Below, piece after piece: positions 23,892-64,000 of a DNA stretch of 64,000 nt; within the stretch, counting starts at the first letter, position 1; the number at the start of each line of letters is the position of its first letter. A model generated the notes under the pieces. It was not told where the DNA came from. It saw only the letters and a list, made by a program, of their open reading frames with translations, and made no database searches. This DNA is from Tubulanus polymorphus (taxonomy: Eukaryota > Animalia > Nemertea): NCBI RefSeq assembly GCF_964204645.1, contig NC_134035.1, positions 7,534,451 through 7,598,450 of the forward strand, in the 5' to 3' direction. A program made the translations under genes and the position numbers.

Positions 23892-25084
23892 ATGGCGAGT
23901 GGAAGTTATATAAATCCCTCTAAGAATTCTAGAATATCGAATGCAATTAAAGCAGAACGTTGTCATCATATAATTACTCATAATCCTTCTAATATTAATC
24001 CAAATGAAACTTTATATGTTAGAATTCCTAGGTTAAATCAATATACTTTTTATGTGCCAAGTAGTATTTATTTATCGGCTGATATAGAAGTAACTGGTAA
24101 TGATAATTATTATTTTGTAGATAATGTTGGTAGATATTTAATCAAAAAAATAAACTACAAAGATTGGACCAGAAACAGTTTTAACATTAGATGATTATAA
24201 TTTATTCGCGCATTATAAAGATTTGTGGTTAACTAAAGAAAATAGAAATAATATGATATTTCAAGGCATCCACCAATCGGAAAATCAAACTAAATTAAGA
24301 TCAGGAGCTAATAACGCAGAAGTAACTAATGACGTAGATAATTTAATAAAAAAAGATTTACGGTAGTAAATATAAAATTCCATTACACTTTGAATTAATA
24401 GATAATAATACACCTTTGTATAAATATACAAGAAGTTGTTATATTTGAAATAACCTTTGCACCCGTAAATGAAATAGTATTGTGGAGTGTTTTTAAAGAT
24501 ATTGGCTATAAATTATCGAATTCATGTTTAAAGTATGATACAGTAACTGATGAAAATATTGCGAGTACAATTCTAACTCAATACAATCGAGGTTATTCAT
24601 TATTATATGATTATATTGACAAATTCAAAACTGTAACTAATTTTGCGGCTGATAAAATAATCAATGAAAATATTAACTTTCCTAGACGTTCAATGAAAGG
24701 TGTATTAATATTTTTTACTACAACATATTCTAATGGTGCAATGAAAGTTAAAAATAAAATATTTTGTCAGGGCATGCGAATGATTGATCAATGGGTTGAA
24801 ATTAAAAAACATTTTATGAATGAAAAAAATAAACTATCTGAAGATTGTAATATTAATCAAATTGATTATAATACTGGTAATAAATTTGCATGATGGTTAG
24901 ATTTTAGAACAACTGAAGATAACTTATTACATGGTTCTGGGAAGAAATTACGTAATACAAGAGATGGGATACAATTATTCATGAAAAAGAAAAAAGGAGG
25001 TCTCAACTATAAATGCATGTTTATGTTATATCGGATGCACAATTAAATACATCAAATTTTTAATTACATAGTATTCAATATTAA
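23892..25084 (+). pseudogene. Polinton major capsid protein pseudogene
   Basis: High similarity to 60550-61797 (ITHNPSNINP, NINFPRRS), broken by frameshifts. Confidence 0.9.
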
Positions 25085-25114
25085 GAATATAAAGTTAATA
25101 TTGATGATATATAA

Positions 25115-26220
25115 ATGGGGGATAAAAAATTTCAAAATACTAAAGAACAATATTTTAAGAAATGTATGTTATAACCCCGAGAGTTCGGTTGCTTATTCTT
25201 CTGCAAAAAAATATATGGAGTCAGGTTAAACAAGATAAATTGAATAAGATAATCCAACAAAATCTAGTTAAATATAAAGATATTGATGAATTTATGTTAG
25301 AACAACCAACATATACAACACATAAAAAAAATATAAAACCCGTAAAACTATGGTAAGTTACGTAGATCAACAAAGGCAGGGAGATTTAATTGATATGATA
25401 AATCTTAAAAAAAGATAATAATGATTATTGGTGGATATTAAAAATAATTGATATTTTTAGTCGTTATGTGTGGAGCTTCCCGCTCTACAGAAAAGATGCT
25501 GCACAAACTTCTTTCAGGTGGTAAACTAAAGCCAGAAAAAATACAATTTGATGATGGAAAGGAATTTGATAACTCATTTGTTCATGTACTCTTAGATTAT
25601 CATAATATTAGAAATTTTTCAACAAAATCAGATAAGAAAGCAGCATTTGTTGAACGATTTAATAGAACATTAAGAACAAGAATGTCAAAATATTTCACAG
25701 CAAATAATACTTATGAATGGATTGATGTCATACCAAAATTAATAGAAGGCTTTAATAATCCTTACCATTCATCAATTGGAATGAAACCTATTGAACTAGA
25801 AAACCTGAAAATGCTGAAATTGTTTGGAATTACGGGGCATTTCTTGTAGATGATTTTGATGAGCCTCAATTGGTGAGCCTAAATATAAGGTTGGTCAAAA
25901 TGTTAGAATTTCTAAGTATAAAAAAATACTTGATAAAGGATACGATCGTAACATTACAAGAGAAATATATAACATAAAAAAATAATAACAACATTACCAT
26001 ATGTCTAAAATTAGAAGATTTGGAAGGCGAAGAAGTTGATGGGTATTTTCATGAAGAAGAATTAAGTTTAACTACTAACAATCTAGAACAAGAATATAAA
26101 ATTGGAAATTATTGAAAACAAAAAATGTTAAAAAGAAAAAAATATTCTTTAGTAAAATGGGTTGGGTGGCCGGATAAATTTAATGAATGGATACTATCAA
26201 GTAAAATTAAAAATATATAA
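25115..26220 (+). pseudogene. Polinton integrase pseudogene
   Basis: Similar to 61828-62955 (QFDDGKEF, VERFNRTL), with frameshifts. Confidence 0.9.
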
Positions 26221-26829
26221 ATGAATAAAGAATTATTCATATTTGAACCTCATAATATGTTATTTTCTGGTGTCACGAATTGTGGAAAAATATGTTTTAT
26301 AATAAATTTATTTGAAACTTTTTATAAAAACTATTTTGATAATATAGTATTATTCTGTCCAACGTATGAATTCAATCGAACTTATGATAGAACTATTACT
26401 AGAAATAATGAATTTATTGTATTAGATCCTAATACAGTGAAAGAAAATTTAGATGATTGAATTAAAATAGCAATTGATATTTATAATGGAACAAATACAT
26501 TATTTATTATAGATGATTGTGCAAATTTACATGATTCAAAAGTTAGAGAAAGTGAGTTATGTTACCTAGCTTTCTCTGCTAGACATTTTAGAATTTCAAC
26601 GTCGGTTCTAAATCAAAAATATAATTCAATTGTAAAAGATTTTAGAGAGAATATAAGATTTTTGGTTTTATTCTATAATAAAGATAGAAAATCAATGAAA
26701 AATGCACTTGAGGAAATTGATATTATTCCACATGATTTACATAATGAATATATGGATAAATTGAAAGATAATAAACAATCAAAATTATTATTTCGATTAC
26801 AGCACCCATTTAAATATGAATTTATTTAA
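26221..26829 (+). pseudogene. Polinton packaging ATPase pseudogene
   Basis: Similar to 62956-63564, with an in-frame TGA at 26458-26460. Confidence 0.9.
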
Positions 26830-27036
26830 ACTCAACTAGCTTGTTAATCTATTATATTTTTAGTTACATTCTAGTTATCTTTTAGTTGTTGGTATTTGAA
26901 ACAAAAATCAAATAAAATTCAACAAGAAATAAATCAAAATTATAATAATTCAACTAGCTTGTTAATGTAGTATATTTTTAGTTACATTCTAGTTAAATTC
27001 TAGTTACAACAACACAACTAATTTTTTGTTATAAAA

Positions 27037-27920
27037 ATGGGTGGAGAAAAGAAAATAGAATCTAAAAATTGTGATGTTCCAATTGAAAAAACTTGATGAT
27101 TTAGGTATAACAGAAACAAAATTAACTCCAGCTAATGGTGCTTTAAATGATGTTACAACAAAAATTAATTATGAATATTATCTTTATTGCAAACATCAAT
27201 TAGAAATATTAATTGCATCTGGAGAATGTAAAACTTTTATTGGTCTTACTTATAATGAATTAGATACAATGAAATCAGATCAAATTATTAAATTGTTTAA
27301 GATTTATGAAACTGCAGGAATAGCTAGAATTAATGACGCGATATCAGAAAATGTAATAACATGTTATTCTAAGTTATGTAATTATGTGCTACCAATTGAA
27401 GATGAAAATAAATAATACTCCGATTTAAAAAATGATTCTTTAGTTATGACTGGATTAAATAAATGGATTGAATATCTATCATTACAATTAGGTGGATTTA
27501 TGACATTATTATCAACTGGAGTTATAACATTTTCATACATTGATAATAAAAGTTTTTCTATAATGAATGAGCGAGGTGGAAGAAGTGAAAGAATTAACTG
27601 TGAAGAAAAAACCTGGATCACAGAAACAAATTGAATGGTCTCGGCAGTTAGGAATCAAACCAAAAGAATTTAAAAATGCCAAAAAAGAAAAAATGAAATT
27701 TTTGATAATAAAGATGGAAATGATGTTATTTCTATTCCCTCTAAATCATTCAATAAATATTTTTATTAATCAAACGGTCTTGTAATTGTTATCATTTTGA
27801 TAGAATGTAGTTGCTATAAAAAATCTAATAAAAATTATGATGTTAATAATTCTGAAACTTATTCTGTTGAAAATGAAAAAACTTCTGAAATTCCAAAATT
27901 CACCATAAAAATGGATTAAT
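27037..27920 (+). pseudogene. Two decayed Polinton accessory genes (about 27037-27565 and 27567-27920)
   Basis: The first matches the ORF starting at 63870. The second begins MSEVEEVKELTVKKKPGSQKQIEWSRQLG. Both are frameshifted. Confidence 0.6.
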
Positions 27921-28232
27921 AACTTTCAAATTAACCAAAAAATCATTTTATTTATCTAAAAATATTTCTTTTTTTAATTAATTAAATATCTCACTACTTT
28001 TGTCTATCTATTAGGAGCAATTTAATTTTCCAGATAAGTCATTTCGGATTCTTGATATTTAATTAATTTCATTATTTTATTATTTTTATTATTACATTTT
28101 CTTTTTGCTTATTTTATTTTTTTATTATTTAATTTTTTCATTATTTTATGTTTTTATAATTATATTCTTTTACAATTTTATGTTTTTACTATTTTATGTT
28201 TTTTTTTCATTTTATTTGTTTAATTATTTTAT

Positions 28233-28551
28233 TTATTCAACAATTTCTAACTCATGATGACCGTGTTCATCTTTTCCGTGATAGAATATTTTAAAACGTT
28301 CTAAATCTTTTAATTCCTCTTTACTTAATGAAACCGATTCATCACAAAAAATCCTTTAAATTCTCGTGTTGTACTAACATTACAGTAACTCAAATTTGCT
28401 GATATTTTTTCTCCATATTCAGTTTTTATCTTTTCTAGTTTTGATATTTTATGTTCGATTTCTTTTGTAACATCGACTAACTTTTTTACTTCAAATTGTT
28501 TTTTGCTGGTTTTATTTTATTATTTATTGATGTTACTTTTCTCTCTCCCAT
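28233..28551 (-). pseudogene. Small terminal Polinton gene (possible OB-fold/ssDNA-binding protein), frameshifted
   Basis: TAAATG start 85 nt inside the right terminus; translation includes KISKLEKIKTEYGEKISANL...FKIFYHGK. The fold assignment is a guess. Confidence 0.45.
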
Positions 28552-28731
28552 TTATCAGGGGAAAAAATTAAAAGTGGTGTTGAGTGATATTCTGACCTCT
28601 CGACCTCTGGTATGAAAACCCACTTTTCCAATAACTGATATTCATATAAATGATATTCATATAAATGATATTCATATGAAATTCATATATATGAAATTAA
28701 AAATATGAAAAAATAATTCTAATTTCTAATC

Positions 28732-28820
28732 AATCTGAAACCTATTGAAAACTAAATTAATTGGGATCGAAGCGAACAGCGGTGCGACTAATTAATTTAA
28801 TTTTCAATAGGTTTCAGATT
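28732..28820. repeat. Hairpin with a ~32-bp stem and GC-rich loop
   Basis: AATCTGAAACCTATTGAAAA pairs perfectly with TTTTCAATAGGTTTCAGATT (20 bp), plus an inner imperfect stem. Confidence 0.9.
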
Positions 28821-31640: not shown

Positions 31641-31665
31641 ATAAAATATTGTATATAAATATTAG

Positions 31666-48436: not shown

Positions 48437-48755
48437 CTATTGATAGAAAATGAAACGATGAAAACCCCGTTAACAATTGAACCTGGTATGAGTATACGGT
48501 ATTACGCTCATTCGACAACTGCTCAATCCAAGGTCAGACAAACAAAAAAGAAGTATTAGGTCTAATTCAAAAAATGTCGAGTAACGAGAGAAATCCAACA
48601 ATAAATTCAGCCAAAAATGAAAAAAGTCGACAAAAATCCACTATATAAAAGAAAAACTATCTGATAGTTTAGTAATTAGAAAAGTGGGGTTTCAGATCAG
48701 AGGACGAGAGGACGAGACACCACTCATCACCACAAGTAATTTTTTTTCCTTATAA

Positions 48756-51700
48756 ATGGGGGAGAATGAACACCAACCAGAAAACAATAATGTTAATAAA
48801 AATCAATATTATTGCACATATTGTAAAAAATACGTTGATACATCTAATAAAACACGACATGAAAAAACTGCAAATCATATAAAAAATGTAATAGATTTTG
48901 AAACTCCAGAAAATTCTAATGAAAGAAAAGAACGATTAGAAAATATGAATGTGGATGAAATAAAATGTGAAGTTTGTAATGAATTTATAGTAAAAAGGAA
49001 TTATAATAGACATCTCGAATCACAAAAACATTATAAAAATTTAAATAAAAATGTTTTAGGATTAGAATATTTTGATAATAAACCTCAACAAGTAAAAGAA
49101 TCAACTTCAAAAACTAAATCCATTTCAAATAAACCCTACATGGAAAATGTTAGAAATTATATTGATTCACTAGAAATAAAAGATACAATTGAAATCTTAG
49201 AAACATTACATAGTAAAATTGGTCCTGCAGCTATTATATTTAGATTTTTTAAAGGTACAACAATAGAAGATTATAGTAAATTTAATGAAATAATAGAAAA
49301 AATACTAGATTTGATAACAGATGTTGAATATCCAAAAATTAGTATCTCTGGGAAAGTAAGTTTTATAAAGTCAGAAGAAAAAATGGATTATAATATTCAA
49401 ACACTCTCTGAAGAAATAATTTCAAAAACACAAATAAAAGATAAGTTAGAAAAAATAGTAAATGAATTTGAACGTCATATTGAAGAAAGATATTTTGAGG
49501 GTTCTGGCTTAACATTGAATGAAATTATATATTTAGATTTAAATGTTTATAATACAAAAAGGAATAAAACATCAAAAAGTAATAAAATGTTTAAAAATGA
49601 TTCAAACTTTACAACAGAAAAGGATATTAAAGCATCATCTTATATTAAATTACCATTTATAACAAAAGCAGTAATAAATATTCAAAATGAAGATAATAAA
49701 TGTTTTCTATGGTCAATTATTAGTTGCTTACATCCAACACAGGAAAAATGTTTGTAGAATAACAGATTATCGGAAATATGAAACATTATATAAAATTGAT
49801 CAATATCCAGTAACTATAAAAATGATTCCTAAAATAGAAAAAGTTAATAATTTAAAAATAAATGTATTCGAATTAATGCAATTACCAAAAACAAAAGGTG
49901 AAAATATTAAAGATTATACATTGGAAGCTTTATATTTAACAGAATATTATGATGATGAAAATGCTATAGATTTGTTATATTATAAAAAAGATGAAAATGA
50001 ACATTATATGTGGTTAAAACAAATTGATTTATTCTTTAGAACAACAGAAAGTGATCATCATCGTAAAATTTATCTATGTAGAAAATGTTTATCTAAATTT
50101 ATGACTGAGAATACATTATTAAAACATAAAGAATTATGTGATAATAAAGATTTTTGTAAATTAATAATGCCAACAGAAAAAGATTATAAATTGAAATTTA
50201 CTAATCATAAATTTAAAAATATTATTCCATTTGTAATTTATGGGGATTTTGAATCGTTGAATAAAGAATTAACTGATCAAGATAGAAAAGAAATATATAA
50301 CAAAAAGCAATTATTAAAATCAATGGATAAAGGAAATGAATTAAATGAAGACACAATACAAGACCCACCAATTATAAATACAATTAAAAAAGTTCATCAA
50401 AGAGCTGCTGCTTATGGAATTTACATCAAATCAAATTATCCCGAATTATATGAAAGTCAATATATTTCTTTTAGAGGTGAAAATGTAGTTAATGATTTTT
50501 GTGATAAAATGATTGAATTAGAAAGTGATTTTACAAAATTATTAAACAAAAATAAAAGAATAGTTATGACAAAAGAAGATGAAATTGATTTTAATTATGC
50601 AACTCATTGTTGTTATTGTGAAAAACGTTTTTATTCATTTGATAAAAGAGTTAGAGATCATGATCATTTGAATTCAAAATATCGTGGAGCTGCTCATGAA
50701 GATTGTAATTTACAAGCTAAAAAAGTAAATTTCGTACCAATATTATTTCATAATTTATCAGGATATGATACCCATCTATTTATAAAACAATTATCGGGAA
50801 AATTGGGTGCAATTAATCAAGAAATAGAAGAATATAATGCTATGAATGAAGCAAATGTAAGAAAATATGATTTTAAACTATTAGCTAAAACATCTGAAAA
50901 TTATATTTCATTTCAATTTGGTTGCATTAGATTTTTAGATTCTTATAGATTTCTAGCAAGTTCATTAGATAATTTATCAAAATCATTAGTTGATAATGAT
51001 TTTATTATAACTCGATATTATTATCCAAATGAACAAGATTTTAAATTATTGAGATATAAAGGCGCAATTCCTTATTCATTTTATAAAACACATGATGATT
51101 TTAATGTAACAGAATTATTAAAAGATCAATTTTATGATCAATTAAAAGAGGAGTATGTGAAAGACGAAGTTTTTAATAGAACATTTAATATTTGGAACCA
51201 TTTTAATATGAAAAATCATGGTGAATTAGTTGATTTATATTTAAAATCAGATGTTATGATATTGGCAGATATATTTGAAAAGTTTAGAGAAGTTAATCTA
51301 AACCATTTTTATGTTGACCCTTGTTATTGTTATTCAAGTCCTGGTTTAACCTGGCAATGTGGTTTAAAATATACAAATGTAGAATTAGATTTATCAAAAG
51401 AACCAGATATGGTTTTATTATTTGAAAAATCAATTAGAGGTGGAATTAGTGGTGTTATGGGAGATAGGTATTTTAAAGCAAATGATGAATATAAATTATT
51501 ATATATTGACGCCAATAATTTATATGGTTGGGCAATGATGCAACCTCAACCATACAAAAATTTTATATTAACAGAAGTTGAAAATGATGATAAAACTGAT
51601 TGGGAAAGCGCAATTACGAGTTTAAAAGATGAAGCACCAATTGGTTATTTCTTTGTAGTTGATTTGGAATATCCCGAAAATATTAAATTTAAAACAAGAA

Positions 51701-53823
51701 ACTTGCCATATTGCCCGGAACATTTAGCCGTAGATGATAGTTATTTAAGTGAATACCAGAAGAAAGTAAAACCGAAAGATCATGTTTTTACGGAAAAATT
51801 AATACTTACTCAAAATAATAAATACAATTATATTGTTCATTATAGAATGTTAAAATTTTATCTAAAACAAGGAATGAAATTAAAGAAAGTACATAGATAT
51901 ATTGAATTTAATCAATCGAAGTGGTTAGAAAAATATATAGATTTCAATACTCAACAGAGAACCATATCAAAAACAGATTTTGAAAAAGATTTCTTCAAAT
52001 TAATGAATAATAGTTTTTATGGTAAAACTTGTGAGAATATTCGTAATAGAAACGATATTGAATTAGTAAATAATTCTGAAAGATTAAGACATTTACAATC
52101 AATTCCTAGACATTTAGGAAATAAAAGATTTGAAGATTATTTAACAGCAGTTAAATTAAAAAGAACATCAATGAAATTTAATAAACCTATATTTATTGGT
52201 TCGACTGTTTTAGAAGTATCAAAATTATTAATGTATGATTTTTATTATAATGTTTTACAACCACTTTTTGGAGAAAAACATATAGAAATATTATATTTTG
52301 ATTCTGTTACAGCAGACACCCCAATATTATTAAAATACAATAATAAAATATTGGTAAGAAGAATTTCAGAAATAATTCCTAATCAAAATAAATCTTATAT
52401 TTCATATGGTGAAAAAGAATTAATACAAATAAATGGATTAATAGATGTTTGGACAAGAAATGGATGGAAAAAATTAAATAATATTATTAGACATAAAACA
52501 AATAAGAAAATCTATAGAGTTAGAACTAAATTAGGATTTGTAGATGTTACAGAAGATCATAGTTTAATTAAACAAAATGGTGATGAAATAAAACCAACTG
52601 ATATAAAAATTGGAGATGAATTATTACATAAAAGATTTTACCCAAGAATGAATCATATGTCATTTGATGAAATAATTGATAATATTTATAATATAGAACC
52701 CAAAACATTAGAAGAAAAAGAATATTTTATCAAAGGATTTTTCATAGGTGATGGTTCAGCAGGTGTGTATAATTATGTTAGTGGAACTAAATATTGTTGG
52801 TATTTATGCAATCAAGACTTAAAATTATTAGATAGAATTAAGAAATTTTGCGAAGAAGTTTATTCACATAAAACATTTAGAATCATGGATGTTATGAAAT
52901 CATCAGCAGTTTATAGAATACTTGTAAATAATCCTAAAGATTTTGCTATAGAATATAATGATGAATTCTATATTCATGCAATAGTGAAAAGTAATACTTC
53001 AACAAAAGAAAAGATAGTTCCAGATTATGTATTAAATGCAAAAAATAATTTAAGAAAATGGTTCTTCATTGGGTTCTACGCAGCCGATGGTACTAAAAAA
53101 TTTACAAAGGATAAAAAGATAACCTTTGCACAGAAAGGAAAAGTTGCTATATCAGGGTTAAATATATTATGTAATTCATTAGGCTTCAATATGAATATTG
53201 GATTGATTAAATCTAAACCAAATTGTTTTAATCTAAGCCACACAGAAAAAGATTTAACTGAAGAAGTTAAAGATTTATTTGAAATATATAACCCAACAGA
53301 TTATGTTTATGATTTATCAACAGATGATGGAACATTCAATTCTGGGTTCCCATTAATCCAAAAAAATACTGATGCATACATACTAAAAATCAAGACAAAT
53401 GATATAACAAAAGACTTAAAAACATTAAAACATCATTTTGATTTTAGCAATTATCCTAAAGATCATGAACTATTTAGCAATGATAATAAAAAGATTCCTG
53501 GTAAATTTAAAGATGAATTAGGAGGTGATGAAATGATTGAATTTGTTGGGATAAGAAGTAAAATGTATTCATATAAAACTAAAGATCATGAATCTAAAAA
53601 GTTAAAAGGAATAACAAAACATGTGGTTGATAAACATATAGAATTTCAAGATTATATAAAGTGTTTATATAAATCAATTGTAATGAAACACAAAATGAAT
53701 TGTTTAAGATCAGAAAATCATGAAATGTATATAAATGAAATTGAAAAAACTAGTTTAAATCCATTTGATGATAAAAGGCATATTTTAGATGATGGTATAA
53801 AAACATTACCTTATGGTCATTAA
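48756..53823 (+). CDS. polB: Protein-primed family B DNA polymerase (N-terminal zinc fingers, exonuclease with endonuclease VII-like insert, intein); one 1-nt frameshift at about 49742-49748
   Basis: Motifs YGDFES, RDHDH..YRGAAH..CN, FHNLSGYD, YIDANNLYGWAM, KLMNNSFYGK, YFD/TD, PGKFKDE, RSKMY and DDKR. Confidence 0.93.
52303..53367 (+). mobile_element. Intein (355 aa) with LAGLIDADG homing endonuclease, inside pPolB motif C
   Basis: YFD|SVTADTP (block A), VDVTEDHSL (block B), FIKGFFIGDG and FFIGFYAADG (LAGLIDADG), YVYDLST (block F), IQKN|T (block G, +1 Thr). Confidence 0.95.
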
Positions 53824-55120
53824 AACATAAAATCAAAATCATCATACTCGAAATCACTACTGGTTTCTTTAATTTTATTTAATTGTTCAGGTTCTTCTTC
53901 AATTCCATTTTTCTCATTTAAATAAAGTTCTATCTTGTTCCACATTTCATCTCGCTCTCTTTGTTTCTTTTTGTTTGTTAATTCGTCAAATGGAATTATA
54001 ATATCTATGTTTAAATAATTTACAATCTTATTTAAAAAGAATTCATAATTTATTGAATCTGTTATTCTATTTTCCAAATGATACATTAATATTTGTTTGA
54101 ATATTTTTTTAATATTTTCCATATCTTCTTCTGTTAATTTAGGTTTTTCATAATAATCGTTAAATAATAAATATAAATACATTTTCTTTTGTTTTGTGTT
54201 AAATGTTGATGGAATAATTGTTTTTATAATATCTTTTTTAGTTATTTCACCATTTTTATTTTCTATTATTTTCATTTTTTCAAGCCATTGCATATATTCT
54301 GGTGTATGATCTTCTATAGAAAATGTTTTAAAAATTTCATCAAGATAATTTAATTTTGGTTCTAAGAGAAAATCTCTAGTTTTTTCTTCACCCCATAAAT
54401 TCTTTTGCCATCCACATTCAACACAAAATAACACAGCACCTTCTTGTCTTAAGGTCGCATAACTACATTGTGGGCATTTTCGTTTATAATTTATTGGTAA
54501 TAGATCTTCATTAAGCTCTTGGTATTTTCTTACGTTTTCTTTATGTTTTATTGTTCTATTATGTAGATTTGAATTACTTGTTGTAATAATCAATTTACAA
54601 TATTTACAATAATATGTTTTTCTTGTTAATTCATTATATTGTTTTTCTAACTTTTCAACTGTTTCTTTATTATCTGGTAACGTTTTCTCATATTTTATTT
54701 TTTCTAATAAATTATTTTTTCTTTCATTGAATTCAGTTTCAAATTTATTAGAAATTTTATCTATATGTGCTTTACGAAATTGATGATTCTCCCAATCTTC
54801 TATATTTTCAGGGTTATATTTTATTCGACAAGGCTCACAGAAATGATCTTTTATATTATCCTTATCATAGAATAAGAAAGGTCTTTTCCAAATAACTTCA
54901 GGTTCAACTTCGGCAGATTTACTATCAACATTAGCCGTTGCGCCATTAATTCTACACTTCTCTGAATGTTTTTAACATAATTTCTTGAGAATAATTTATT
55001 ACATTTTGGACAGTTTATTTTAGGGGGTTTATAATTTTCATCATGTTTTTTCATATGTCGAGCCATATTACTTTTTCTGATAAGTTCACTACAAATTTCG
55101 CATGCTATCTTCTCATCCAT
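53820..55120 (-). CDS. Multi-zinc-finger protein fused to a poxvirus A2/VLTF3-like late transcription factor (~433 aa after restoring one base in the T5 run at 54969-54973)
   Basis: The frame is open from 54971 to 53820. Zinc ribbon CPQC..CVECG, then IFKQILMYHLENRITDSINYEFFLNKI and DEMW. Confidence 0.75.
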
Positions 55121-55188
55121 TTATTAAGGAAAAATTTTATTAAAATTAATTTTTAATGATGAGCGGTAATTTTTTTATGTTATAAATA

Positions 55189-55941
55189 ATGGTAGAATTA
55201 AAAGAATACAGAATATTTGTAGATTCTAGAAGGCTTACAAATTATAAATCTCATAATTTATTAATACAATTAGATAGAGAATTTAAGAATTGCGTTGATT
55301 TAAAATTAGTAAATATTAGTTTATGTAATTCTTTTTACAATGTAACGGATAAAAGTCTTGAACATTTAATTTTTTCAATCTTTTATAAAAAAAGGAATAA
55401 ATGGTTTTTTATATATTTAAAACCAGGATTATATAATTTAAATACATTAGCACAAGAAATTAATAGAAAAGCTCGAGCTAAATTAGGAAGTGATTCTGGA
55501 TTTAATATTAGAATTTTAAAAAGTGCTAGTTCTAATAAAATAAAGATTAGGTTAGACGAACAATTTAAATTTACAGTAAGAAAACCTTTAGGTAAACTGT
55601 TAGGAATTGCCCCTGATATTGTTACAACATATGCAGAAGGTAAATCAAACTTAATACCTTTTACACATTTTTATATTTATTGTAATTTAATCGATCCTAC
55701 AAAAACATTCGAAGCAACTAAAGATATAACTTGTAATTCTGGTTTACTAAACATTTTACCATTGAAGAATGTTAAAGAATTTGGAACGCAAATAAATTAT
55801 AATTTAACAGAATGTGATTTCAAACCATGCATTCCTAGTTTTAATAATTTTAAATTAGAAATAAGAAATCATAATGGATACTTAATTGATTTGAATAATT
55901 TCCCTGTAATTTATGAATTAGTTATAAGATGTAAAGAGTAA
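55189..55941 (+). CDS. Minor capsid (penton) protein
   Basis: Motifs IFVDSRR, NSFYNV, PGLYN, IYCNLI and EIRNHNGYLIDLNN..IYELVIR, the single jelly-roll pattern of Polinton pentons. Confidence 0.75.
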   Translation: MVELKEYRIFVDSRRLTNYKSHNLLIQLDREFKNCVDLKLVNISLCNSFYNVTDKSLEHLIFSIFYKKRNKWFFIYLKPGLYNLNTLAQEINRKARAKLGSDSGFNIRILKSASSNKIKIRLDEQFKFTVRKPLGKLLGIAPDIVTTYAEGKSNLIPFTHFYIYCNLIDPTKTFEATKDITCNSGLLNILPLKNVKEFGTQINYNLTECDFKPCIPSFNNFKLEIRNHNGYLIDLNNFPVIYELVIRCKE

Positions 55942-55957
55942 TTTTTCACCTATATAA

Positions 55958-56311
55958 ATGAATATAACTGTTGGACCGAGTATATGTTTTGGTTTTGATT
56001 TTAAACGTGAGAAAGAAATGAAATTTAATATGAATGATGTAATTACACATATCAAAAATATTGCATTTTCTAATGAAACAACATTTGAGTATGAAACAAC
56101 AATAGATAAAGAAACTTTTAATGTAGAAAAGATTACTAATTTAATTAGAGAATCTTTAAGATTTTATGAATTAGATGAAGATTTTATCATCGATGATATC
56201 AAAAAAATAATAATTGAAATATATACAAATGAAACTAGTAATAAAATAAATGTTGAATTAATCATAAATAAGTTAACTAAATATTTTGAAGATAGTAATT
56301 TTTTTGATTAA
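55958..56311 (+). CDS. Polinton hypothetical protein (117 aa)
   Basis: Intact ORF with the T-run/TAAATG start. Confidence 0.7.
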   Translation: MNITVGPSICFGFDFKREKEMKFNMNDVITHIKNIAFSNETTFEYETTIDKETFNVEKITNLIRESLRFYELDEDFIIDDIKKIIIEIYTNETSNKINVELIINKLTKYFEDSNFFD

Positions 56312-56314
56312 TAA

Positions 56315-56536
56315 ATGAGTGATAATAAGTGGATAATAACTGGATTATATAATGGAGCATTACTATCAGTTGGAACGGTTGGTTATTCAATGGTATTAAA
56401 AAAAGTATTCAAAATGGGAAGCGTTAATGTTGATAGATTTGATATAAATGATATTTTAAAGTTAACGTTAACAATTACTTTATCTAATTTAACAATTGAT
56501 TATTTGGAAAAACAAAAATATATTCCTCCCATATAA
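56315..56536 (+). CDS. Small hydrophobic protein (73 aa)
   Basis: TAAATG start; two hydrophobic segments. Confidence 0.7.
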   Translation: MSDNKWIITGLYNGALLSVGTVGYSMVLKKVFKMGSVNVDRFDINDILKLTLTITLSNLTIDYLEKQKYIPPI

Positions 56537-56560
56537 ATGAATAATTTTTTTGCTAAATAA

Positions 56561-56983
56561 ATGGCTTCTGCAATTATAACTATTATAGGATCAGCAATTG
56601 TTAACGCTTTAGCATTTACAGGTGGTGGTTATTTATTTAAACATATTGATAAAAATAGTTCATTAGGAGAACAAAGAAGACATAACTTAGCGTTAGAGAA
56701 ATATAATAAAGATGCAGAAGAATATAGAGAAAAGAGACAAAACTATATGGATTACATCAATAAAGAATTATATGATCAGAAGATTTCACATAGAGATTTT
56801 CAATCAGTTGATGATGCAATGAGTTTATATAACGCGGTAACCAATAAAGAAAAATTACATCTATACAAACCTAAATTATCAGATTATTATACCCCAAGTA
56901 AAGAACAACAGAAATATGAAATAATATGGATTTTAGGTGGAACAGTTATTGTTATATTTGTTGCTTATAAGTTTACTAATTAG
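56561..56983 (+). CDS. Membrane-associated protein (140 aa; N-terminal hydrophobic helix, coiled coil, C-terminal TM)
   Basis: MASAIITIIGSAIVNALAFTGGGYLF..RHNLALE; ends in IIWILGGTVIVIFVAY. Confidence 0.8.
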   Translation: MASAIITIIGSAIVNALAFTGGGYLFKHIDKNSSLGEQRRHNLALEKYNKDAEEYREKRQNYMDYINKELYDQKISHRDFQSVDDAMSLYNAVTNKEKLHLYKPKLSDYYTPSKEQQKYEIIWILGGTVIVIFVAYKFTN

Positions 56984-57002
56984 TAATTTTTATTCTAAAT
57001 AA

Positions 57003-57437
57003 ATGGAAGATAAAGTTGATAGTATTGATATCATTCCTCATGATATAAATAAAACTAAATTAAAAATATATTTAGAAAAACAAATATTAGAATTTGAAAG
57101 TGACCTAAAGATAAAAAAGAAAAAATATTTAAAAAGTAAAATTATATATTATTTGATTATAAGTGGTTCGGTTACAATTAGTTCTGTAATAACATTTCTA
57201 GCAATATTCAGTCCATTAACACCTTTAGCTATATCAATTGGTGTATTAGGATTAAGTTCAAGTGTTTTAACTGGTATAAGTTCAAAATTAAATATAAAAA
57301 GTAATAAAGAAAAAATAAAATCTAATATAAAAGAAATTAATAAATTAAAGAATACACTAGATTATATAATAAGTTTAAATGGTCATATAACAGTTGAAGA
57401 ACAAGATAAATTATTAAAAGAATTAATAAATTATTAA
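57003..57437 (+). CDS. Two-TM coiled-coil protein (144 aa)
   Basis: Hydrophobic hairpin flanked by Lys-rich helices. Confidence 0.75.
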   Translation: MEDKVDSIDIIPHDINKTKLKIYLEKQILEFESDLKIKKKKYLKSKIIYYLIISGSVTISSVITFLAIFSPLTPLAISIGVLGLSSSVLTGISSKLNIKSNKEKIKSNIKEINKLKNTLDYIISLNGHITVEEQDKLLKELINY

Positions 57438-57453
57438 TTTTTTAATTATATAA

Positions 57454-58842
57454 ATGGTAGATAGTTTTCCAAAAGCTTTCCAATATAATAAATCAATTAA
57501 ATATAATATTCCAGCAATAGATTTTAATAAAGATATTACATATAGAAATGAAGTTTTAAATTCATTAATTGATTTATATATTTATGTTACTGAAACTAAT
57601 AATTTTAATGCAAAGATGGAAAATATATTTCATGTATATTTAATTGATTTTAAAAAATTGAAAGATGAAAAACAATGGTTATTAAAATCTAATATGAAGT
57701 ATTGGCAGAATCAATTAAATTTTGCTGTTTATTGTGCAACAACAGGATGTGGAATTAGTTGGAATGATCATTTGAATAATTCTAAATATAAACTAATTCA
57801 AAGTTTATTTAGATTTCATACATACTTTCAAATCAGAATAATATTAAATGAATTAGAGTGTGCTTTACCAGGATCTAGATATTTTAAAGAATTGGATAAT
57901 AATATTAATTTATCTAAGTTTTATAAAATTTGCAATGAATTTAATATAGATATAAATAATTCTGATTTTAGAATAAAAATTGGAACAATAAGATCACTTC
58001 CATGCCCTAGAAAGATTGCAGAATATTGTGCACTTCCTATACCATCTAATAGTTTTTATAATATCTATAATAAAAAATTAGGTTATGGTAAAATAGAAAC
58101 AAAGGATTTAGAAACATTAAATTTCAATAAATTACCGAAATTTTATGATAATTTAAAACAAGAAAACAATAATGGTTGGGTATATTTTATTTTAGAAAAT
58201 AGTGAAGGTTTTACTAAATCAGGTATAGAAAGAATAAATCAATCTATTAGAACTTATTTGATATGTATTTTAGGCGCGCAAGTTGAAACAAGATCACCGA
58301 TAATTGGAAATTTGAATACATCATTCGATACACAAAAACAATTCAAAGTTTTATTTGAAGATTCAATTCATAATGATAAAAATAGATCGATTCCAGAAAA
58401 CATTATAAGATATCAAAATTATTTAGATAAATCTCATGTAAGACTTAATTATTGTATAGGCCCTAATCTATTAATTATTTCTAATGATTTAGTATTAAAG
58501 ATGGGAAATATAATTGGTTATAATAATCTAAGTAAAACTGCGACAATAAATAATTCATTTGGATTAAATGATATAAATAAAAAGATTATTACTGCTCCAA
58601 AATTAATGGAAGGTGAAAAAAATAAAAAACATATTCAATCAACTGAAACTAAAACTAAGAATATTAAATTGGATAATGATTCCAAAATAAAAGATTACAA
58701 TACATCAGAAGATATAAAAACTGATAATATTCAACATGATATAATTAAACAAAATGACGATAATAAATCCCATGAAAATACTAAATTAGCTATAACTTGT
58801 ATAGGAATTGTAATCGGAGGAATATTATATTTTAAATTTTAA
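57454..58842 (+). CDS. Polinton protein of unknown function with C-terminal TM anchor (462 aa)
   Basis: WQNQLNFAVYCATTGCGISW motif; ends in LAITCIGIVIGGILYF; tail conserved in the decayed copy. Confidence 0.85.
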   Translation: MVDSFPKAFQYNKSIKYNIPAIDFNKDITYRNEVLNSLIDLYIYVTETNNFNAKMENIFHVYLIDFKKLKDEKQWLLKSNMKYWQNQLNFAVYCATTGCGISWNDHLNNSKYKLIQSLFRFHTYFQIRIILNELECALPGSRYFKELDNNINLSKFYKICNEFNIDINNSDFRIKIGTIRSLPCPRKIAEYCALPIPSNSFYNIYNKKLGYGKIETKDLETLNFNKLPKFYDNLKQENNNGWVYFILENSEGFTKSGIERINQSIRTYLICILGAQVETRSPIIGNLNTSFDTQKQFKVLFEDSIHNDKNRSIPENIIRYQNYLDKSHVRLNYCIGPNLLIISNDLVLKMGNIIGYNNLSKTATINNSFGLNDINKKIITAPKLMEGEKNKKHIQSTETKTKNIKLDNDSKIKDYNTSEDIKTDNIQHDIIKQNDDNKSHENTKLAITCIGIVIGGILYFKF

Positions 58843-58858
58843 TTTTTTTATTATGTAA

Positions 58859-58996
58859 ATGGATGTAAAAGGTGTAGAAGATATTCCATTGGATCCTTTA
58901 GATGAACCTGGTATAAGTGATGAACAACAACCTGATTTTGATGAAACAAGTTTCAGTAATGATAATAAAACGGTATATAATACTAATTTAGGTGAA

Positions 58997-59029
<33 letters not shown>

Positions 59030-60478
59030 TATGATGATCCCGAATTACATGAAAAATTAAATAAAATTAAAATTAAAATAACAGTTACAATTGTTAACGA
59101 AATATTGCCAAAAGATGTAATAGATGAAATTGGTTCAGAAGAAATTGTAAAACAAATTTTAAAAGATGATCCATTTTTCATGAATAATTTAAAATTAAAA
59201 AATAATGTGTGGTATTATAATGTTGAATTAAATAACAAAATTGTATCAGTTCAATTATCTAAAATGAGACAAGAAAATCTGTTCCATATAGAAATGCGAG
59301 CAAGATCTACAATTGAAGGTTCAAAAGGCGGTAGAGAATTTCTCAGAATTATATGGAATGCAATCAATAGAATAAATGAAGAAGAACCAATTCCTAATAT
59401 TGATATAAACAAATATTCACCATTTAAAAATCCAAATCCAAATCCTACTGATTTTGATCCAGAGATGGAAGAGAATAGAAATCGATTAGATAGATTAAGA
59501 TCTTCAACACCCGAAACATCTAGAAGAGATATTCAACAAATTGATAATGATTCAAATCAATTACAATTAGGAAAACATTTTGATAGCATGTTAGATGCAA
59601 TTCATTCATTTGACGAAGAGATGAATAGTATTTTAGATACACCCAGTACTGAAACTGAAATAAATCGAATACAATCTTTACTAGAAAAAGGATTACTTGA
59701 TTTAACTGATGAAGAATTAAAAGAATTTCCTGAACAAGCACGTAGAGAAATTAAAGGAATGCAAGAATCAGCTGGTGAAATTGCTAATATTAAGATGAGA
59801 TTTTCTAAAATAACCATATTAGAAAAAGAATTAGTTAATGTAGATGAAGAATTAAAACAATTAGAATTAAATAGAGATCTTCAATTAATCGAGGAAGCTG
59901 ATTATGAAAGCAGAAAGTTAGCTTTAGAAAAAGAAATAGATGATTTAGAATATAACATAAAATTACAAAAAGAAGAAAGAGATACATTATTAAAATCATA
60001 TGATCTTAATCATATTAAAAAATTAAAAGTTATTTTTAAAGATTTGTTGATAAAACCAGATTCTAAAATATCATTGAAAGATAGAATAAAATTATTATTT
60101 AAATTAGAAGGAATAACAATTCTTTCAATTCTAACAGCTGTAACTATGGTATTTACAACAATTGGTTTAGCTATATCAAATGCTTTAAAATCTACTCCTA
60201 CTCCCACTCCAAATAAACCAGATAAACCTCCAGGCAATAATTCTATACAAGATAAAGTTAAGGATGGTTTAAAGAAATTAGCAAAATATTTATGGGAACT
60301 ATCTAAAAAATCTGCTGCAGCTTTACCAGGAGTTATTGCATCAATTGTTGGTTTTATATTGAAATCTGCAGGAAACATTATTAACTTTGCTGCTGAACAT
60401 ATTATTTTATTTTTAATTACAGTTGTAAGTGCTATTATTTTTGGTTTAGTAAATATGATATCAAAAAATATCAAGTAA
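58859..60478 (+). CDS. Acidic/coiled-coil protein with multiple C-terminal TM helices (539 aa)
   Basis: Intact ORF; C-terminal hydrophobic helices conserved in the copy at 23.4-23.9 kb. Confidence 0.85.
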
Positions 60479-60549
60479 ACCATGATATCAAAAAATATCA
60501 AGTAAACCATGATATCAAAAAATAAATAATTAATTTTTTTGTTAAATAA

Positions 60550-61797
60550 ATGAGTGGGAGTTATATAAGTCCTTTGAAGAATCATAGAATATCTAATGCT
60601 ATTAAAGCAGAAAGATCACATCATATAATTACTCATAACCCTTCTAATATTAATCCCGATGAAACTTTATACGTTAGAATCCCTCGATTAACACAAAATA
60701 CTTTTTATGTTCCAAACAGTATTTATTTATCAACCGATATAAAAGTAACTGGCCATGATAACAATTATGTTGTTGATAATGTTGGAAGATATTTGATTAA
60801 AAAATTAACTATAAAGATTGGTCCGGAAACAGTTTTCTCATTAGATGATTATAATTTATTTATGCATTATAAAGATTTATGGTTAACTAAAGAAAATAGA
60901 AATAATATGATATTTCAAGGCATCCAATCGGAAAACCATAATAAATTAAGATCTGAAGCCAATAATGCAGTAGTAACTCGTGCCACAGATAATTTGATTA
61001 AAAAGATTTATGGAAGCAAATATAAAATTCCATTAGACTTTGAATTGATAAATAATAATGCACCTTTATATAAATACGCAATTCAAGAAGATATTATATT
61101 TGAGATAACATTTGCTCCTGTAAATGAAATTGTATTATCTAGCGTTGTTAAAGATATGGGTTATAAATTATCGAATATATGTTTAGAATATAACACAGTA
61201 ACTAATGAAAATATTGCTAGCACAATTCAAACTCAATACAATCAAGGATTTTCATTATTATATGATTATATTGATAAATTTAAAACTGTAACTATTAATG
61301 CAAATGATGAAATAATTAATGAGAATATTAACTTTCCTAGAAGATCTATTAAAGGTATATTAATATTTTTTACTATTGCAACATATTCTAATGGTGCAAT
61401 AAATGTTGATAATTATTATAATCCTGAAATAACAAAAGTAGAAATAACTATCGAAGGTATAGCGAATAAAATATTTTGTCAAGGAATGAGAATGATAGAT
61501 CAATGGCCAGAAATTAGAAAACATTTTATGAATGAAAAAGTAAAATCATTTGAAAATTGTAATATTAATCAAATTGATTATTATACTGGTAATAAATATG
61601 CATTATGGTTAGATTTTAGAACAACTGAAGATAACTTATTACATGGTTCTGGAAAAAAACTACAAAATACAAAAGATGGAATACAATTATTCATGAAAAA
61701 GAATAAAGGAATCAAAAATTTTAAAATGCACATTTATATTATATCTGATGCGCAATTAAATATTGTAAATTCACAATTAGATAGTATTCAATATTAG
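60550..61797 (+). CDS. Major capsid protein (double jelly-roll, inferred)
   Basis: 415 aa, beta-rich; NPSNINPDETLYVRIP, ALWLDFRT..LHGSG; located next to the integrase and ATPase. Confidence 0.8.
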   Translation: MSGSYISPLKNHRISNAIKAERSHHIITHNPSNINPDETLYVRIPRLTQNTFYVPNSIYLSTDIKVTGHDNNYVVDNVGRYLIKKLTIKIGPETVFSLDDYNLFMHYKDLWLTKENRNNMIFQGIQSENHNKLRSEANNAVVTRATDNLIKKIYGSKYKIPLDFELINNNAPLYKYAIQEDIIFEITFAPVNEIVLSSVVKDMGYKLSNICLEYNTVTNENIASTIQTQYNQGFSLLYDYIDKFKTVTINANDEIINENINFPRRSIKGILIFFTIATYSNGAINVDNYYNPEITKVEITIEGIANKIFCQGMRMIDQWPEIRKHFMNEKVKSFENCNINQIDYYTGNKYALWLDFRTTEDNLLHGSGKKLQNTKDGIQLFMKKNKGIKNFKMHIYIISDAQLNIVNSQLDSIQY

Positions 61798-61827
61798 AAA
61801 TATAAAGTTAAAATTAAGTGTATATAA

Positions 61828-62955
61828 ATGGGTGGTAAAAAATCTCCTAATACTAAAGAACAATATTTAAGAAATTTATATTACAACCCTGAGAGTTCGG
61901 TTGCTTATTCTTCTACTAAAAATATATGGCGTAAAGTAAAACAAGATAAATTAGATAAGATAATCCCACAAAATTTAGTTAAATATAAAGATATAAATGA
62001 ATTTATGTTAGAACAACCAACGTATACAACACATAAAAAAATTGTTAGAAAATATAAAACTCGTAAAACTATGGTAAGTTATGTAGATCAACAGTGGCAA
62101 GGAGATTTAATTGATATGAAAAATGTTAAGAAAGATAATGATGATTATTGGTGGTTATTGAATATAATTGATATTTTTAGTCGTTATGTATGGAGCTTCC
62201 CACTTTATAGAAAAGATGCTGTACAAACATCAAATGTTTTAAGAAAATTTCTTTCGGATGATAAACTAAAACCAGAAAAAATACAATTTGATGATGGAAA
62301 AGAATTTGATAATTCACTTGTTCATGAACTCTTAGATAATCATAATATTAAATATTTTTCAACAAAATCAGATAAAAAAGCAGCAGTTGTTGAACGATTT
62401 AATAGAACATTAAGAACAAGAATGTGGAAATATTTTACAGCAAATAATACTTTTAAATGGATTGATATTTTACCAAAATTGATAGAAGGATATAATAATT
62501 CTTATCATTCTTCTATTGGAATGAAACCTATTGATGCTAGAAAACCTGAAAATGCTGAAATTGTTTGGAATAATTTATATGGAGCATTTCTTATAGATGA
62601 TTTTGGCGAACCTAAATTTAAAGTTGGTCAAAATGTTAGAATTTCTAAGTATAAAAAGATATTTGATAAAGGATACGATCGAAATTTTACTAGAGAAATA
62701 TATAAAATAAAAAAGGTAATAACAACAAAACCATATGTCTATAAATTAGAAGATTTAGATGGTGAAGAAGTTGATGGCTACTTTTACGAAGAAGAATTAA
62801 GTTTAACTACTGAAAATCTAGAACAAGAATATAAAATTGAAAAAGTAATAAAAACAAAAACTATTAAAAGAAAAAAATATTCTTTAGTAAAATGGGTTGG
62901 ATGGCCAGATAAATTTAATGAATGGATATTATCAAGTAAAATTAAAAATATATAA
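61828..62955 (+). CDS. Retroviral-like (rve) DDE integrase with C-terminal chromodomain
   Basis: WQGD, IDIFSRY, QFDDGKEF, VVERFNRTL; chromodomain YKIEKVI..LVKWVGWPDKFNEWI. Confidence 0.95.
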   Translation: MGGKKSPNTKEQYLRNLYYNPESSVAYSSTKNIWRKVKQDKLDKIIPQNLVKYKDINEFMLEQPTYTTHKKIVRKYKTRKTMVSYVDQQWQGDLIDMKNVKKDNDDYWWLLNIIDIFSRYVWSFPLYRKDAVQTSNVLRKFLSDDKLKPEKIQFDDGKEFDNSLVHELLDNHNIKYFSTKSDKKAAVVERFNRTLRTRMWKYFTANNTFKWIDILPKLIEGYNNSYHSSIGMKPIDARKPENAEIVWNNLYGAFLIDDFGEPKFKVGQNVRISKYKKIFDKGYDRNFTREIYKIKKVITTKPYVYKLEDLDGEEVDGYFYEEELSLTTENLEQEYKIEKVIKTKTIKRKKYSLVKWVGWPDKFNEWILSSKIKNI

Positions 62956-63564
62956 ATGAATAAGGAATTATTCATATTTGAGCCTCATAATATGTTAATT
63001 TCTGGTGTAACAAATTGTGGAAAAACTTATTTTATATTACATTTATTAGAAACTGTTTACGAAAACTATTTTGATAATATAGTATTATTTTGTCCAACAT
63101 ATGAATTTAATCAAACTTATGATAGAAACATTACTAGAAATAATAAATTTATTATATTAGATCCTAAAACAGTAAAAGAAAATTTAGATAATTGTATAAA
63201 AATAGCAATTGATATTTATAAAGGATCAAATACATTATTTATCATAGATGATTGTGCTAATCTACATGATTCAAAAGTTAGAGAAAGTGAGTTATGTTAT
63301 TTAGCTTTCTCTGGAAGACATTTTGGGATAACAACTTGGGTTTTAAATCAAAAATATAATTCAATTGTTAAAGATTTTAGAGAAAACATTAGATTTCTAG
63401 TTTTATTCTACAATAAAGATAGAAAATCAATGAAAAATGCACTTGAGGAAAATGATATTATTCCACATGATTTACATAATGAATATATGGATGAGTTGAA
63501 AAATATTAAAAGATCAAAATTACTATTTAGATTACAACACCCATTTAAATATGAATTTATTTAA
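62956..63564 (+). CDS. A32-like DNA packaging ATPase
   Basis: Walker A GVTNCGKT, Walker B FIIDD, GRH motif, LNQ. Confidence 0.92.
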   Translation: MNKELFIFEPHNMLISGVTNCGKTYFILHLLETVYENYFDNIVLFCPTYEFNQTYDRNITRNNKFIILDPKTVKENLDNCIKIAIDIYKGSNTLFIIDDCANLHDSKVRESELCYLAFSGRHFGITTWVLNQKYNSIVKDFRENIRFLVLFYNKDRKSMKNALEENDIIPHDLHNEYMDELKNIKRSKLLFRLQHPFKYEFI

Positions 63565-63860
63565 ATTCAACTAGTTTGTTAATCTAATTGAATTCTAGTT
63601 ACATTCTAGTTGAATTCTAGTTGTTAGTAGTTGAAACAAAAATCAATTAGATTTAACAATATTTCAACTAGCTTGTTAATCTATTTTAATTCTAGTTACA
63701 TTCTAGTTGAATTCTAATTGTTAGTAGTTGAAACAAAAATCAACTAGAATGTAACTAGAAATAAACAAAAACAACAATATTTCAACTAGCTTGTTAATCT
63801 AGTTGAATTCTAGTTACATTCTAGTTGAATTCTAGTTGCAACAACACAACTAATTTGTTT
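63565..63860. repeat. Intergenic CTAG-rich direct and inverted repeat array
   Basis: Units of TTCTAGTTACATTCTAGTTGAATTCTAG; a homologous array lies at about 26830-27025. Confidence 0.85.
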
Positions 63861-63869
63861 GTTATATAA

Positions 63870-64000
63870 ATGGGAGGTGAAAAGAAAATAAAATCTAAAA
63901 ATGGTGATGTTACAATTGAAAAAACTTTAGATGATTTAGGAATAACAGAAACAAAATTAACTCCAGATGATGGTGCTTTAAATAATGTTACAACAAATAA
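63870..64000 (+). CDS. Polinton accessory gene, 5' part (runs off the window)
   Basis: TAAATG start; MGGEKKIKSKNGDVTIEKTLDDLG, homologous to the ORF at 27037. Confidence 0.75.
   Translation, partial: MGGEKKIKSKNGDVTIEKTLDDLGITETKLTPDDGALNNVTTN

Follow-up and report, generated by a model that had tools for sequence, protein, structure and literature searches.

In this study, we analysed a window of 64,000 nucleotides (nt) from the ribbon worm Tubulanus polymorphus (contig NC_134035.1 of assembly GCF_964204645.1, positions 7,534,451 to 7,598,450) and found that the genes of an integrated Polinton/Maverick element begin at a common two-part signal, TAATTTTT-N8-TAAAT(G), in which a T-rich core precedes a TAAAT that usually overlaps the start codon. 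The window consists of animal DNA with a GC of ~0.39 and has two AT-rich islands (GC 0.235 and 0.243). The second island is the element, which extends from ~48,670 to the window end. The start signal is selected and clade-specific, and is not a product of base composition. We consider it somewhat probable that the signal is a compact two-part promoter, and that the RNA polymerase which reads it is the post-replicative one of a poxvirus-type helper virus, not that of the host. Such a helper would make this Polinton a virophage-like parasite of a poxvirus-type virus; the match is to vaccinia promoters as printed, not to an identified helper.

An earlier note on this DNA, made from the sequence alone, had claimed that 12 of 13 ATGs of the element are embedded in TAAATG, the penton (minor capsid) candidate gene being the exception, that a T5-T8 run begins exactly 13 nt before TAAAT in nine genes, and that this fixed spacing goes beyond AT-richness. 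Our recount agrees with these claims. We scored 13 gene starts (48756, 55120 on the minus strand, 55189, 55958, 56315, 56561, 57003, 57454, 58859, 60550, 61828, 62956 and 63870); two further open reading frames (ORFs), at 49687 and 54293, lie inside genes broken by frameshifts and were scored as non-starts. TAAATG was present at 12 of the 13 starts versus 21/367 other plus-strand ATGs, or 34/608 other ATGs when both strands were counted (Fisher p 3e-13). Under a stricter control, namely the other first ATGs after a stop in six frames, it was present in 34/411. TAAAT lay within 6 nt of the ATG at all 13 starts. The nine starts with the T-run comprise eight with TAAATG and the penton candidate (TAAATAATG), in which the spacing of the core is set by TAAAT and not by the ATG. 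Among TAAATG sites, the T-run was found at 8/12 starts versus 0/34 non-starts (p 2e-6). The enrichment test that the note had proposed, against internal ATGs and shuffled sequence, thus tied the motif to gene starts. The motif was also larger than claimed: the full form TAATTTTT-N8-TAAAT occurs nine times in the element, always at starts, whereas 200 dinucleotide shuffles gave a mean of 0.14 and a maximum of 2. When spacings of 3-14 were scanned, the count peaked at 8 (10 vs 1.5), and that at spacing 11 equalled the shuffle maximum (6). As a bare word, TAAATG is not enriched in the element (46 vs a shuffle mean of 33 and maximum of 55). What is non-random is the placement at starts of TAAATG and of the pattern T6-N7-9-YAAAW (see below), not word frequency.

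T at -11 was present at all 13 starts. Four starts deviate from the full motif: those of the integrase and ATPase genes (TAAAATTAA-N7), that at 55120 (run shifted by 2 nt) and that at 63870 (interrupted run, TAATTTGTTTG). The A-rich variant TAAAATTAA-N7-TAAATG, common to the integrase and ATPase genes, also stands before the ATPase gene in three relatives (L001-L003). It may represent a second temporal class, given the A-rich upstream sequence of vaccinia intermediate promoters; before the ATPase gene, the variant is coding sequence too. The note had further claimed that the spacing is kept in a decayed copy of the element. This is the case at 23892 (+) and 28551 (minus), and not at 22870, 25115 and 27037, where the motif is eroded.

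To extend the comparison, an alignment of 35 capsid proteins was used to fetch 68 metagenomic loci. Forty-five were tallied; L015 (a duplicate of L014), L021, L022, L041, L042, L048 and L052-L068 (short or fragmentary) were left out. We took the longest ORFs that do not overlap, counted frameshift pieces among them, and scored the first ATG of each. L003 nearly duplicates L002, as L012 does L011, and because the rows are related, p-values overstate independence and are upper bounds on confidence. In a quick tree of 52 capsid rows with an arbitrary root, the window, L001-L013 and L016 formed one clade (SH-aLRT 99); L001-L013 are 51-76% identical. The 14 related loci, with the window excluded and GC ranging from 0.20 to 0.44, had TAAATG at 56/64 first ATGs, and other ATGs in the clade loci had it at 2-5%. 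The frequency was 41/47 in the subclade of the window (31/34 without the window), 9/11 in L006-L008 (GC 0.36-0.44), and 9/9 and 7/10 in two further subclades. Outside the clade, TAAATG was found at 0/26 starts in L014 and L020, 0/13 in an equally AT-rich sister clade (L017, L018, L039 and L043, GC 0.30), 0/4 in L032 and 5/163 in a group of 22 loci, many of them decayed. AT-richness is therefore insufficient, because the clade keeps the signal up to 44% GC and the AT-rich sister clade lacks it. The signal covers at least 16 gene families and persists through gene-order changes among the relatives. One close relative, L001, has a deoxynucleoside kinase gene (10340-10981) under the same start motif.

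Positions around the motif were compared between 61 start and 106 non-start TAAATG sites in the window and 12 loci. T at -9 was found in 56/61 starts versus 33/106 non-starts, A at -15 in 50/61 versus 32/106, and a purine at +4 in 60/61 versus 58/106; T at -10 was present in 49/61 starts. Sister clades without TAAATG have a TATA-like word instead. In group F (L014, L020 and also L015; GC 47-49%), ATTT-N11-13-TATA(G/C) stands 0-14 nt before the ATG; TATA was found at 15/19 starts vs 36/710, and core plus TATA at 6/19 vs 3/710. This two-part signal resembles the TATA late initiator of African swine fever virus (ASFV) and pacmanvirus. Divergent gene pairs of group H (L023-L051) share an AT-rich block with a CAATTG palindrome and then a TATA-like word, a third promoter style.

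What sort of signal is it? The distance from T-run to TAAAT is fixed, whereas between 0 and 305 nt separate the motif from the preceding stop. The motif is present before the first gene (48756), where the T-run cannot be a terminator because there is no gene upstream, and before divergent genes without an upstream partner. Eleven starts are not fused to TAAAT. Four of them look like frameshift pieces, and among the other seven, the T at -9 from the nearby TAAAT is kept in five and absent in two; in one detached start, 16 nt lie between TAAAT and ATG, which places the ATG 21 nt away. Six loci contain head-to-head pairs of TAAATG at spacings of only 19-30 nt, too tight for ordinary RNA polymerase II (Pol II) promoters plus leaders. 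In addition, scanning ribosomes disfavour T at -3, where eukaryotes prefer a purine. The fixed spacing, divergent placement, detached starts and head-to-head pairs fit a compact transcription initiator, so that promoter function is predicted from the arrangement of the sequence. The same points make a terminator, a splice acceptor and a translation context less likely. A trans-splice acceptor was rejected since the AG that it needs is under-represented (within the last 10 nt in 8/61 start versus 41/106 non-start sites), and stop-start coupling was rejected as the main role since the TAA of TAAATG is the upstream stop in only 2/63 cases. A TATA box, AT-richness and a resolution site were each rejected as the main explanation.

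It seems improbable that the motif is no promoter but a gene-junction signal, in which the T-run (poly(T)/T5NT) or an AATAAA overlapping the start ends the upstream transcript and TAA-ATG couples or insulates translation. The motifs before first and divergent genes, the variable distance to the upstream stop and the rarity of a shared stop speak against it, as do six T5NT sites within the polymerase gene. On its side are the purine kept at +4 and the first TAA, which is the stop of the upstream gene in 3/9 window motifs; ASFV transcripts end at poly(T) (PMC7163114). In coding DNA, moreover, T5VT is scarce in the sense strand (19 vs 43; 10/15.0, 7/19.1 and 2/9.1 observed/expected) and not in the antisense form (191 vs 206); long A-runs are scarce too. 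The T-run may have a second role in termination.

T6-N7-9-YAAAW is the poxvirus concatemer-resolution consensus, and the earlier note had linked the motif to it. This link did not stand. Seven starts formally fit the pattern, gene order varies among the relatives and palindromes lie near the ends of decayed copies. However, the pattern is not enriched in the element (10 vs a mean of 6.8 and maximum of 15), the sites are tied to ATGs in gene orientation along the element and do not sit at hairpin ends, an arrangement of one site per terminal hairpin, inverted about the junction, was not found, and the DNA polymerase is protein-primed. Chance is excluded by the shuffles and the AT-rich control group. 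A DNA-level site for concatemer resolution or module recombination, or AT-rich chance, is thus largely refuted as the main role, and we regard it as very improbable.

Published promoters were compared as described in the cited papers. In vaccinia late promoters, TAAAT overlaps the start codon, and of the Ts upstream the one at the 10th base is conserved and the others less so (PMC11980589); intermediate promoters are A-rich upstream (PMC11980589; PMC5294985). Poxviruses as distant as salmon gill poxvirus retain TAAATG, which serves as the template of the poly(A) leader (PMC4542343). The vaccinia resolution site is a late promoter with a T7 run, 8 nt and TAAAT (PMC8956199, Table 1). In the element, TAAAT likewise overlaps the start codon at 12/13 starts, the core is T-rich, and across the clade one best-kept T stands about a helical turn upstream (-9) among less conserved Ts; the 8 nt between T-run and TAAAT equal those of the vaccinia resolution site, and TAAATA with a downstream ATG is tolerated as in vaccinia late promoters. 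The likeness to poxvirus late promoters drawn by the earlier note holds, and the links to VLTF3 and to resolution that it implied do not. Unlike in vaccinia, the signal belongs to an integrated Polinton of ~17 kb (a size estimated from two copies) in which no RNA polymerase was seen, all genes including polymerase and integrase use it with no early class seen, and the core of the window (TAATTTTT) is more rigid. The likeness is known at the level of sequence.

The element has a VLTF3-like gene, which itself starts at TAAATG with a T-run 11 nt upstream. Its product has a zinc ribbon followed by a VLTF3 helical domain. PF04947 matched the C-terminal piece with 26 bits against a cut-off of 25 and missed the longer piece. 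The top match in BFVD of a model of the ribbon and helical domain (pLDDT 76, from 7 sequences) was cowpox VLTF-3 (E 9.5e-7), and entomopoxvirus VLTF-3 ranked 3 and 7; VLTF3s of other large viruses follow closely, the non-pox ones within about two orders, and rank is not phylogeny. The best solved structure was yeast TFIIB (Z 7.4, rmsd 3.6, 98 aligned), a weak match for a helical domain. A word-indexed search with the VLTF3-like piece gave nothing, and a full search gave three unnamed relatives. The VLTF3 profile found only its source loci, and its absence from the other, mostly short, loci is not evidence. The earlier note had implied that VLTF3 goes with TAAATG. Yet sister loci L014, L015 and L020, which use a TATA initiator with a T-core ~15 nt upstream, also encode a short VLTF3-like protein (L014 Pfam E 6e-4, below the cut-off). 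Since this VLTF3-bearing group uses TATA, VLTF3 does not explain TAAATG; it tracks the two-part layout, and the contrast with Polinton families lacking VLTF3 that the note had suggested does not work.

An outside polymerase is needed, because no RNA polymerase gene was seen in the element of ~17 kb by a Pfam scan of the part inside the window; poxvirus RNA polymerase subunits were likewise not recognised among 19 window ORFs and ~25 scanned ORFs of relatives. From the observed motif, its conservation and the gene content, we infer the following scheme for a poxvirus-type helper. The T-rich core, with its best-kept T at -9, would position the helper polymerase, and initiation would occur in the AAA of TAAAT. 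Slippage in the AAA may add a 5' poly(A) leader, so that the mRNA would have A at -3 instead of the T of the DNA. Each gene, polymerase and integrase included, would form a unit of its own whose expression begins only once the helper has infected the cell, as in the case of mavirus and CroV (Cafeteria roenbergensis virus). The VLTF3-like protein may help to recruit or retune the helper polymerase without itself fixing the initiator sequence.

Several observations weigh against such a helper. The scheme draws on the likeness of an AT-rich motif, and we saw neither a transcript nor a start site or poly(A) leader, and found no genome of a helper. The integrase with a chromodomain and the many copies in the host genome imply a nuclear stage. 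The shortage of sense-strand T5NT fits early-type termination rather than late transcription. A separate branch outside the clade (L035 and L037) has TAAATG at 4/6 starts, with no clear core. Group F, in which TAAATG is lacking, has a VLTF3-like gene as well. A low-complexity signal of this kind can arise convergently: TAAAT is found in ranavirus polymerase genes (PMC5294985), and TAAAN serves yeast cytoplasmic linear plasmids, which have a polymerase of their own (PMC6211774). The position in vaccinia (10th base) follows the wording of a review instead of an alignment and may differ from -9 by one base. Finally, AATAAA is not avoided in the coding DNA of the element (67 vs 59.4 expected in 13.1 kb) or of other clade sets (126/127.5 and 18/24.0, codon shuffles), a point in favour of the helper, but the test does not set the clade apart from group H, where TAAATG is lacking and AATAAA is likewise not avoided (35 vs 23.3 expected). 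Avoidance of cryptic promoters inside genes was not detected.

The main alternative, which we judge unlikely, is that host Pol II, together with the TFIIB-like VLTF3 protein of the element and the host TATA-binding protein, reads an autonomous nuclear promoter, TAAATG being a drifted initiator and no helper being involved. The TFIIB/cyclin-type fold of the VLTF3-like domain, the integration and multicopy state of the element, and the VLTF3-like genes and two-part layout in group F, where TATA replaces TAAAT, are in line with this. However, AATAAA occurs about every 200 nt in this intronless coding DNA, the head-to-head starts leave little room, and the VLTF3 gene itself starts at the motif, so that nothing primes the cycle. 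A TATA-like word 2-8 nt from the ATG would also place the Pol II start within the gene. The helper could alternatively be a non-pox cytoplasmic large DNA virus, for example egovirus-like or asfuvirus-like, with the same slippage-type initiator. VLTF3 is common to all these viruses, with non-pox scores near the best, and basal egovirus-like polymerases are reported from marine sediments, in a text that gives no promoter data (10.1101/2024.03.23.586382). We nevertheless give this little credence: the late initiators as described are TATA-type in ASFV and pacmanvirus (PMC7163114; PMC11788076) and TCTA-type in CroV, whereas fusion of TAAATG to the start codon is described for poxviruses. A motif pattern scan of viral contigs gave a single match per contig among the matches listed and is uninformative on the helper. 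Viral-contig scans with capsid or VLTF3 found no relative, one with the ATPase found two distant loci, and prokaryote genomes that were scanned contained no relative.

Helper-promoter mimicry is already known as a type of system: mavirus promoters copy CroV late promoters (10.1101/068312), and PgVV (Phaeocystis globosa virus virophage) copies the promoters of its helper (10.1101/2022.07.28.501842). The element resembles mavirus, Sputnik and Gezel-14T/PgVV as a small capsid-coding integrating element with a promoter of large cytoplasmic DNA virus type. Those virophages have known helpers, namely Mimiviridae-type viruses of protists; the element, by contrast, has an animal host, a signal of poxvirus type and no known helper. 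Poxvirus hyperparasites have also been proposed, namely Polinton-like viruses (PLVs) in entomopoxvirus occlusion bodies (Barth et al. 2024, PMC11296320). The proposal concerns poxviruses of animals and was deduced from shared genes and from co-occlusion; the capsids of two of these PLVs are related to those of group 2 Maverick-Polintons. The PLVs possess a cysteine protease but lack rve integrase, whereas the element has rve and no protease was seen. The main text of that paper contained, by term search, no mention of promoter, TAAAT, motif or VLTF3. The yeast elements pGKL1/2, as described, are also linear and based on protein-primed PolB (pPolB), with TAAAN initiators and slippage-made 5' poly(A) leaders; unlike the element, they code for a polymerase and a capping enzyme of their own and have an upstream element of early type, but neither capsid nor integrase. 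With Mavericks/Polintons (Polintoviricetes, adintoviruses) the element shares pPolB, rve integrase, double jelly-roll capsid, A32 ATPase, multicopy state in an animal genome and, judging from its left end, probably inverted ends. It differs in its VLTF3-like gene and intein, and no shared promoter of such type was found for them in the papers searched; no cysteine protease was seen in the part of the element inside the window. The term 'promoter' was absent by term search from the available text of PMC8502044, PMC10748475, 10.64898/2026.10.13.758929, 10.64898/2026.06.19.733378 and 10.1101/2024.03.23.586382, and in our literature searches, which covered sources other than subscription journals and supplements, no paper described a promoter of this type for Polintons. 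Nor did we find in print a poxvirus-type promoter that is shared by a whole clade of animal Mavericks while sister clades use another initiator.

If the poxvirus-type helper is real, the genes would await its late polymerase and silence in healthy animals is expected, which would bear on how animal Mavericks are expressed and on why their virions have not been seen. A poxvirus-type virus would then be predicted in Nemertea, where none was among the matches listed in the literature search, and a sequence rule would be available for pairing Polinton clades with helper viruses. A wider view, which we offer tentatively and with more doubt than belief, is that animal Mavericks are endogenous virophages whose promoters are helper barcodes. 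The marine clade would be matched to a poxvirus lineage, not yet discovered, that infects ribbon worms and other invertebrates, and the sister T-core and TATA clades to asfarvirus-type helpers, with the VLTF3 of the element adapting the helper polymerase; gene-start motifs in animal genomes would then predict unseen virus groups.

Table 1. Features of the element and of its decayed copies in the window
Feature	Position	Strand	Remarks
Decayed second copy (right half of element)	22625..28636	+	81-88% identity to main copy
Intact motif in decayed copy	23873-23894	+
Intact motif in decayed copy, right inverted repeat	28549-28570	minus
Third, inverted remnant of polymerase gene 5' part	30381-31346		70% identity
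Left end, putative terminal-inverted-repeat sequence	48672..48765	+	Begins AG; contains first putative promoter motif
Motif TAATTTTT-N8-TAAATG before pPolB N-terminal piece (first gene)	48737..48758	+
pPolB gene	48756..53823	+	PF03175 E 2.5e-19; PF14890 (below cut-off); PF14528
VLTF3-like gene (zinc fingers, zinc ribbon, TFIIB/cyclin-type helical domain)	53820..55120	-	Frameshift near start
Motif before penton candidate (TAAATAATG)	55167..55191	+	ATG 3 nt farther from TAAAT
Penton (minor capsid) candidate, 250 aa	55189..55941	+	Conserved; family in 12 loci
Motif before 117-aa gene	55939..55960	+	First TAA is upstream stop codon
117-aa gene	55958-56311	+	ORF
Motif before 73-aa gene	56296..56317	+	Core within upstream coding sequence
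73-aa gene	56315-56536	+	ORF
Motif before 140-aa gene	56542..56563	+
140-aa gene	56561-56983	+	ORF
Motif before 144-aa gene	56984..57005	+
144-aa two-helix membrane protein gene	57003-57437	+	ORF
Motif before 462-aa gene	57435..57456	+
462-aa gene	57454-58842	+	ORF
Motif before 539-aa gene	58840..58861	+
539-aa gene	58859-60478	+	ORF
Motif before major capsid protein gene	60531..60552	+
Double jelly-roll major capsid protein gene	60550..61797	+	Model pLDDT 86; Foldseek PBCV-1 capsid E 1e-16
Variant motif TAAAATTAA-N7-TAAATG before integrase gene	61809-61830	+
rve integrase-chromodomain gene	61828-62955	+	Pfam
Variant motif TAAAATTAA-N7-TAAATG before ATPase gene	62937-62958	+	Within integrase coding sequence; TAA is integrase stop
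A32-type packaging ATPase gene	62956-63564	+	PF04665 E 1e-12
Interrupted motif (TAATTTGTTTG...TAAATG) before last gene	63851..63872	+
Last gene	63870	+	ORF; runs off window end

The assignment of the element to Mavericks/Polintons is based on pPolB together with rve integrase (PF03175 and PF00665) and on the double jelly-roll major capsid protein together with an A32-like ATPase. The main copy is cut by the window end, and the right end of the element lies outside the window. The left end matches 28636-28542, the inverted right end of the decayed copy, with 79% identity. The pPolB gene is split by one frameshift and contains an intein with a LAGLIDADG-like domain (52300-53370). In run X1, one contig joins across the intein stretch, so that intein-free copies may exist. 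The penton candidate, whose atlas look-alikes are unnamed Preplasmiviricota/Nucleocytoviricota proteins recognised under threshold, has candidate identity only. The 117-aa protein had no atlas match. An adenovirus-type cysteine protease had no Pfam match among the scanned ORFs of the window, whose end cuts the element, or of the relatives.

The family is multicopy: contigs of three public runs cover all 30 bins of the examined part with thousands of pieces that are 85-100% alike. A fourth contig set, presumed to be an RNA run, had next to nothing on the examined part of the element, and contigs cannot show starts. In run X1, the summed contig depth was several-fold higher on the structural genes (55000-61800) than on the polymerase; this depth is no copy number. 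Palindromes of ~99 and ~404 bp (28728-28824 and 31665-32068) adjoin the ends of the decayed copies. They have related GC-rich centres and arms that resemble the terminal-repeat motif, and could be fold-back ends or miniature derivatives. Between the ATPase gene and the next gene lies a self-complementary, CTAG-rich tandem repeat of 97 bp (63566-63838), which recurs in the decayed copy at 26832-27005. Outside the element, the window contains an intronless host G protein-coupled receptor gene (32063-33091, minus strand), whose family has at least eight paralogues named from Tubulanus polymorphus.

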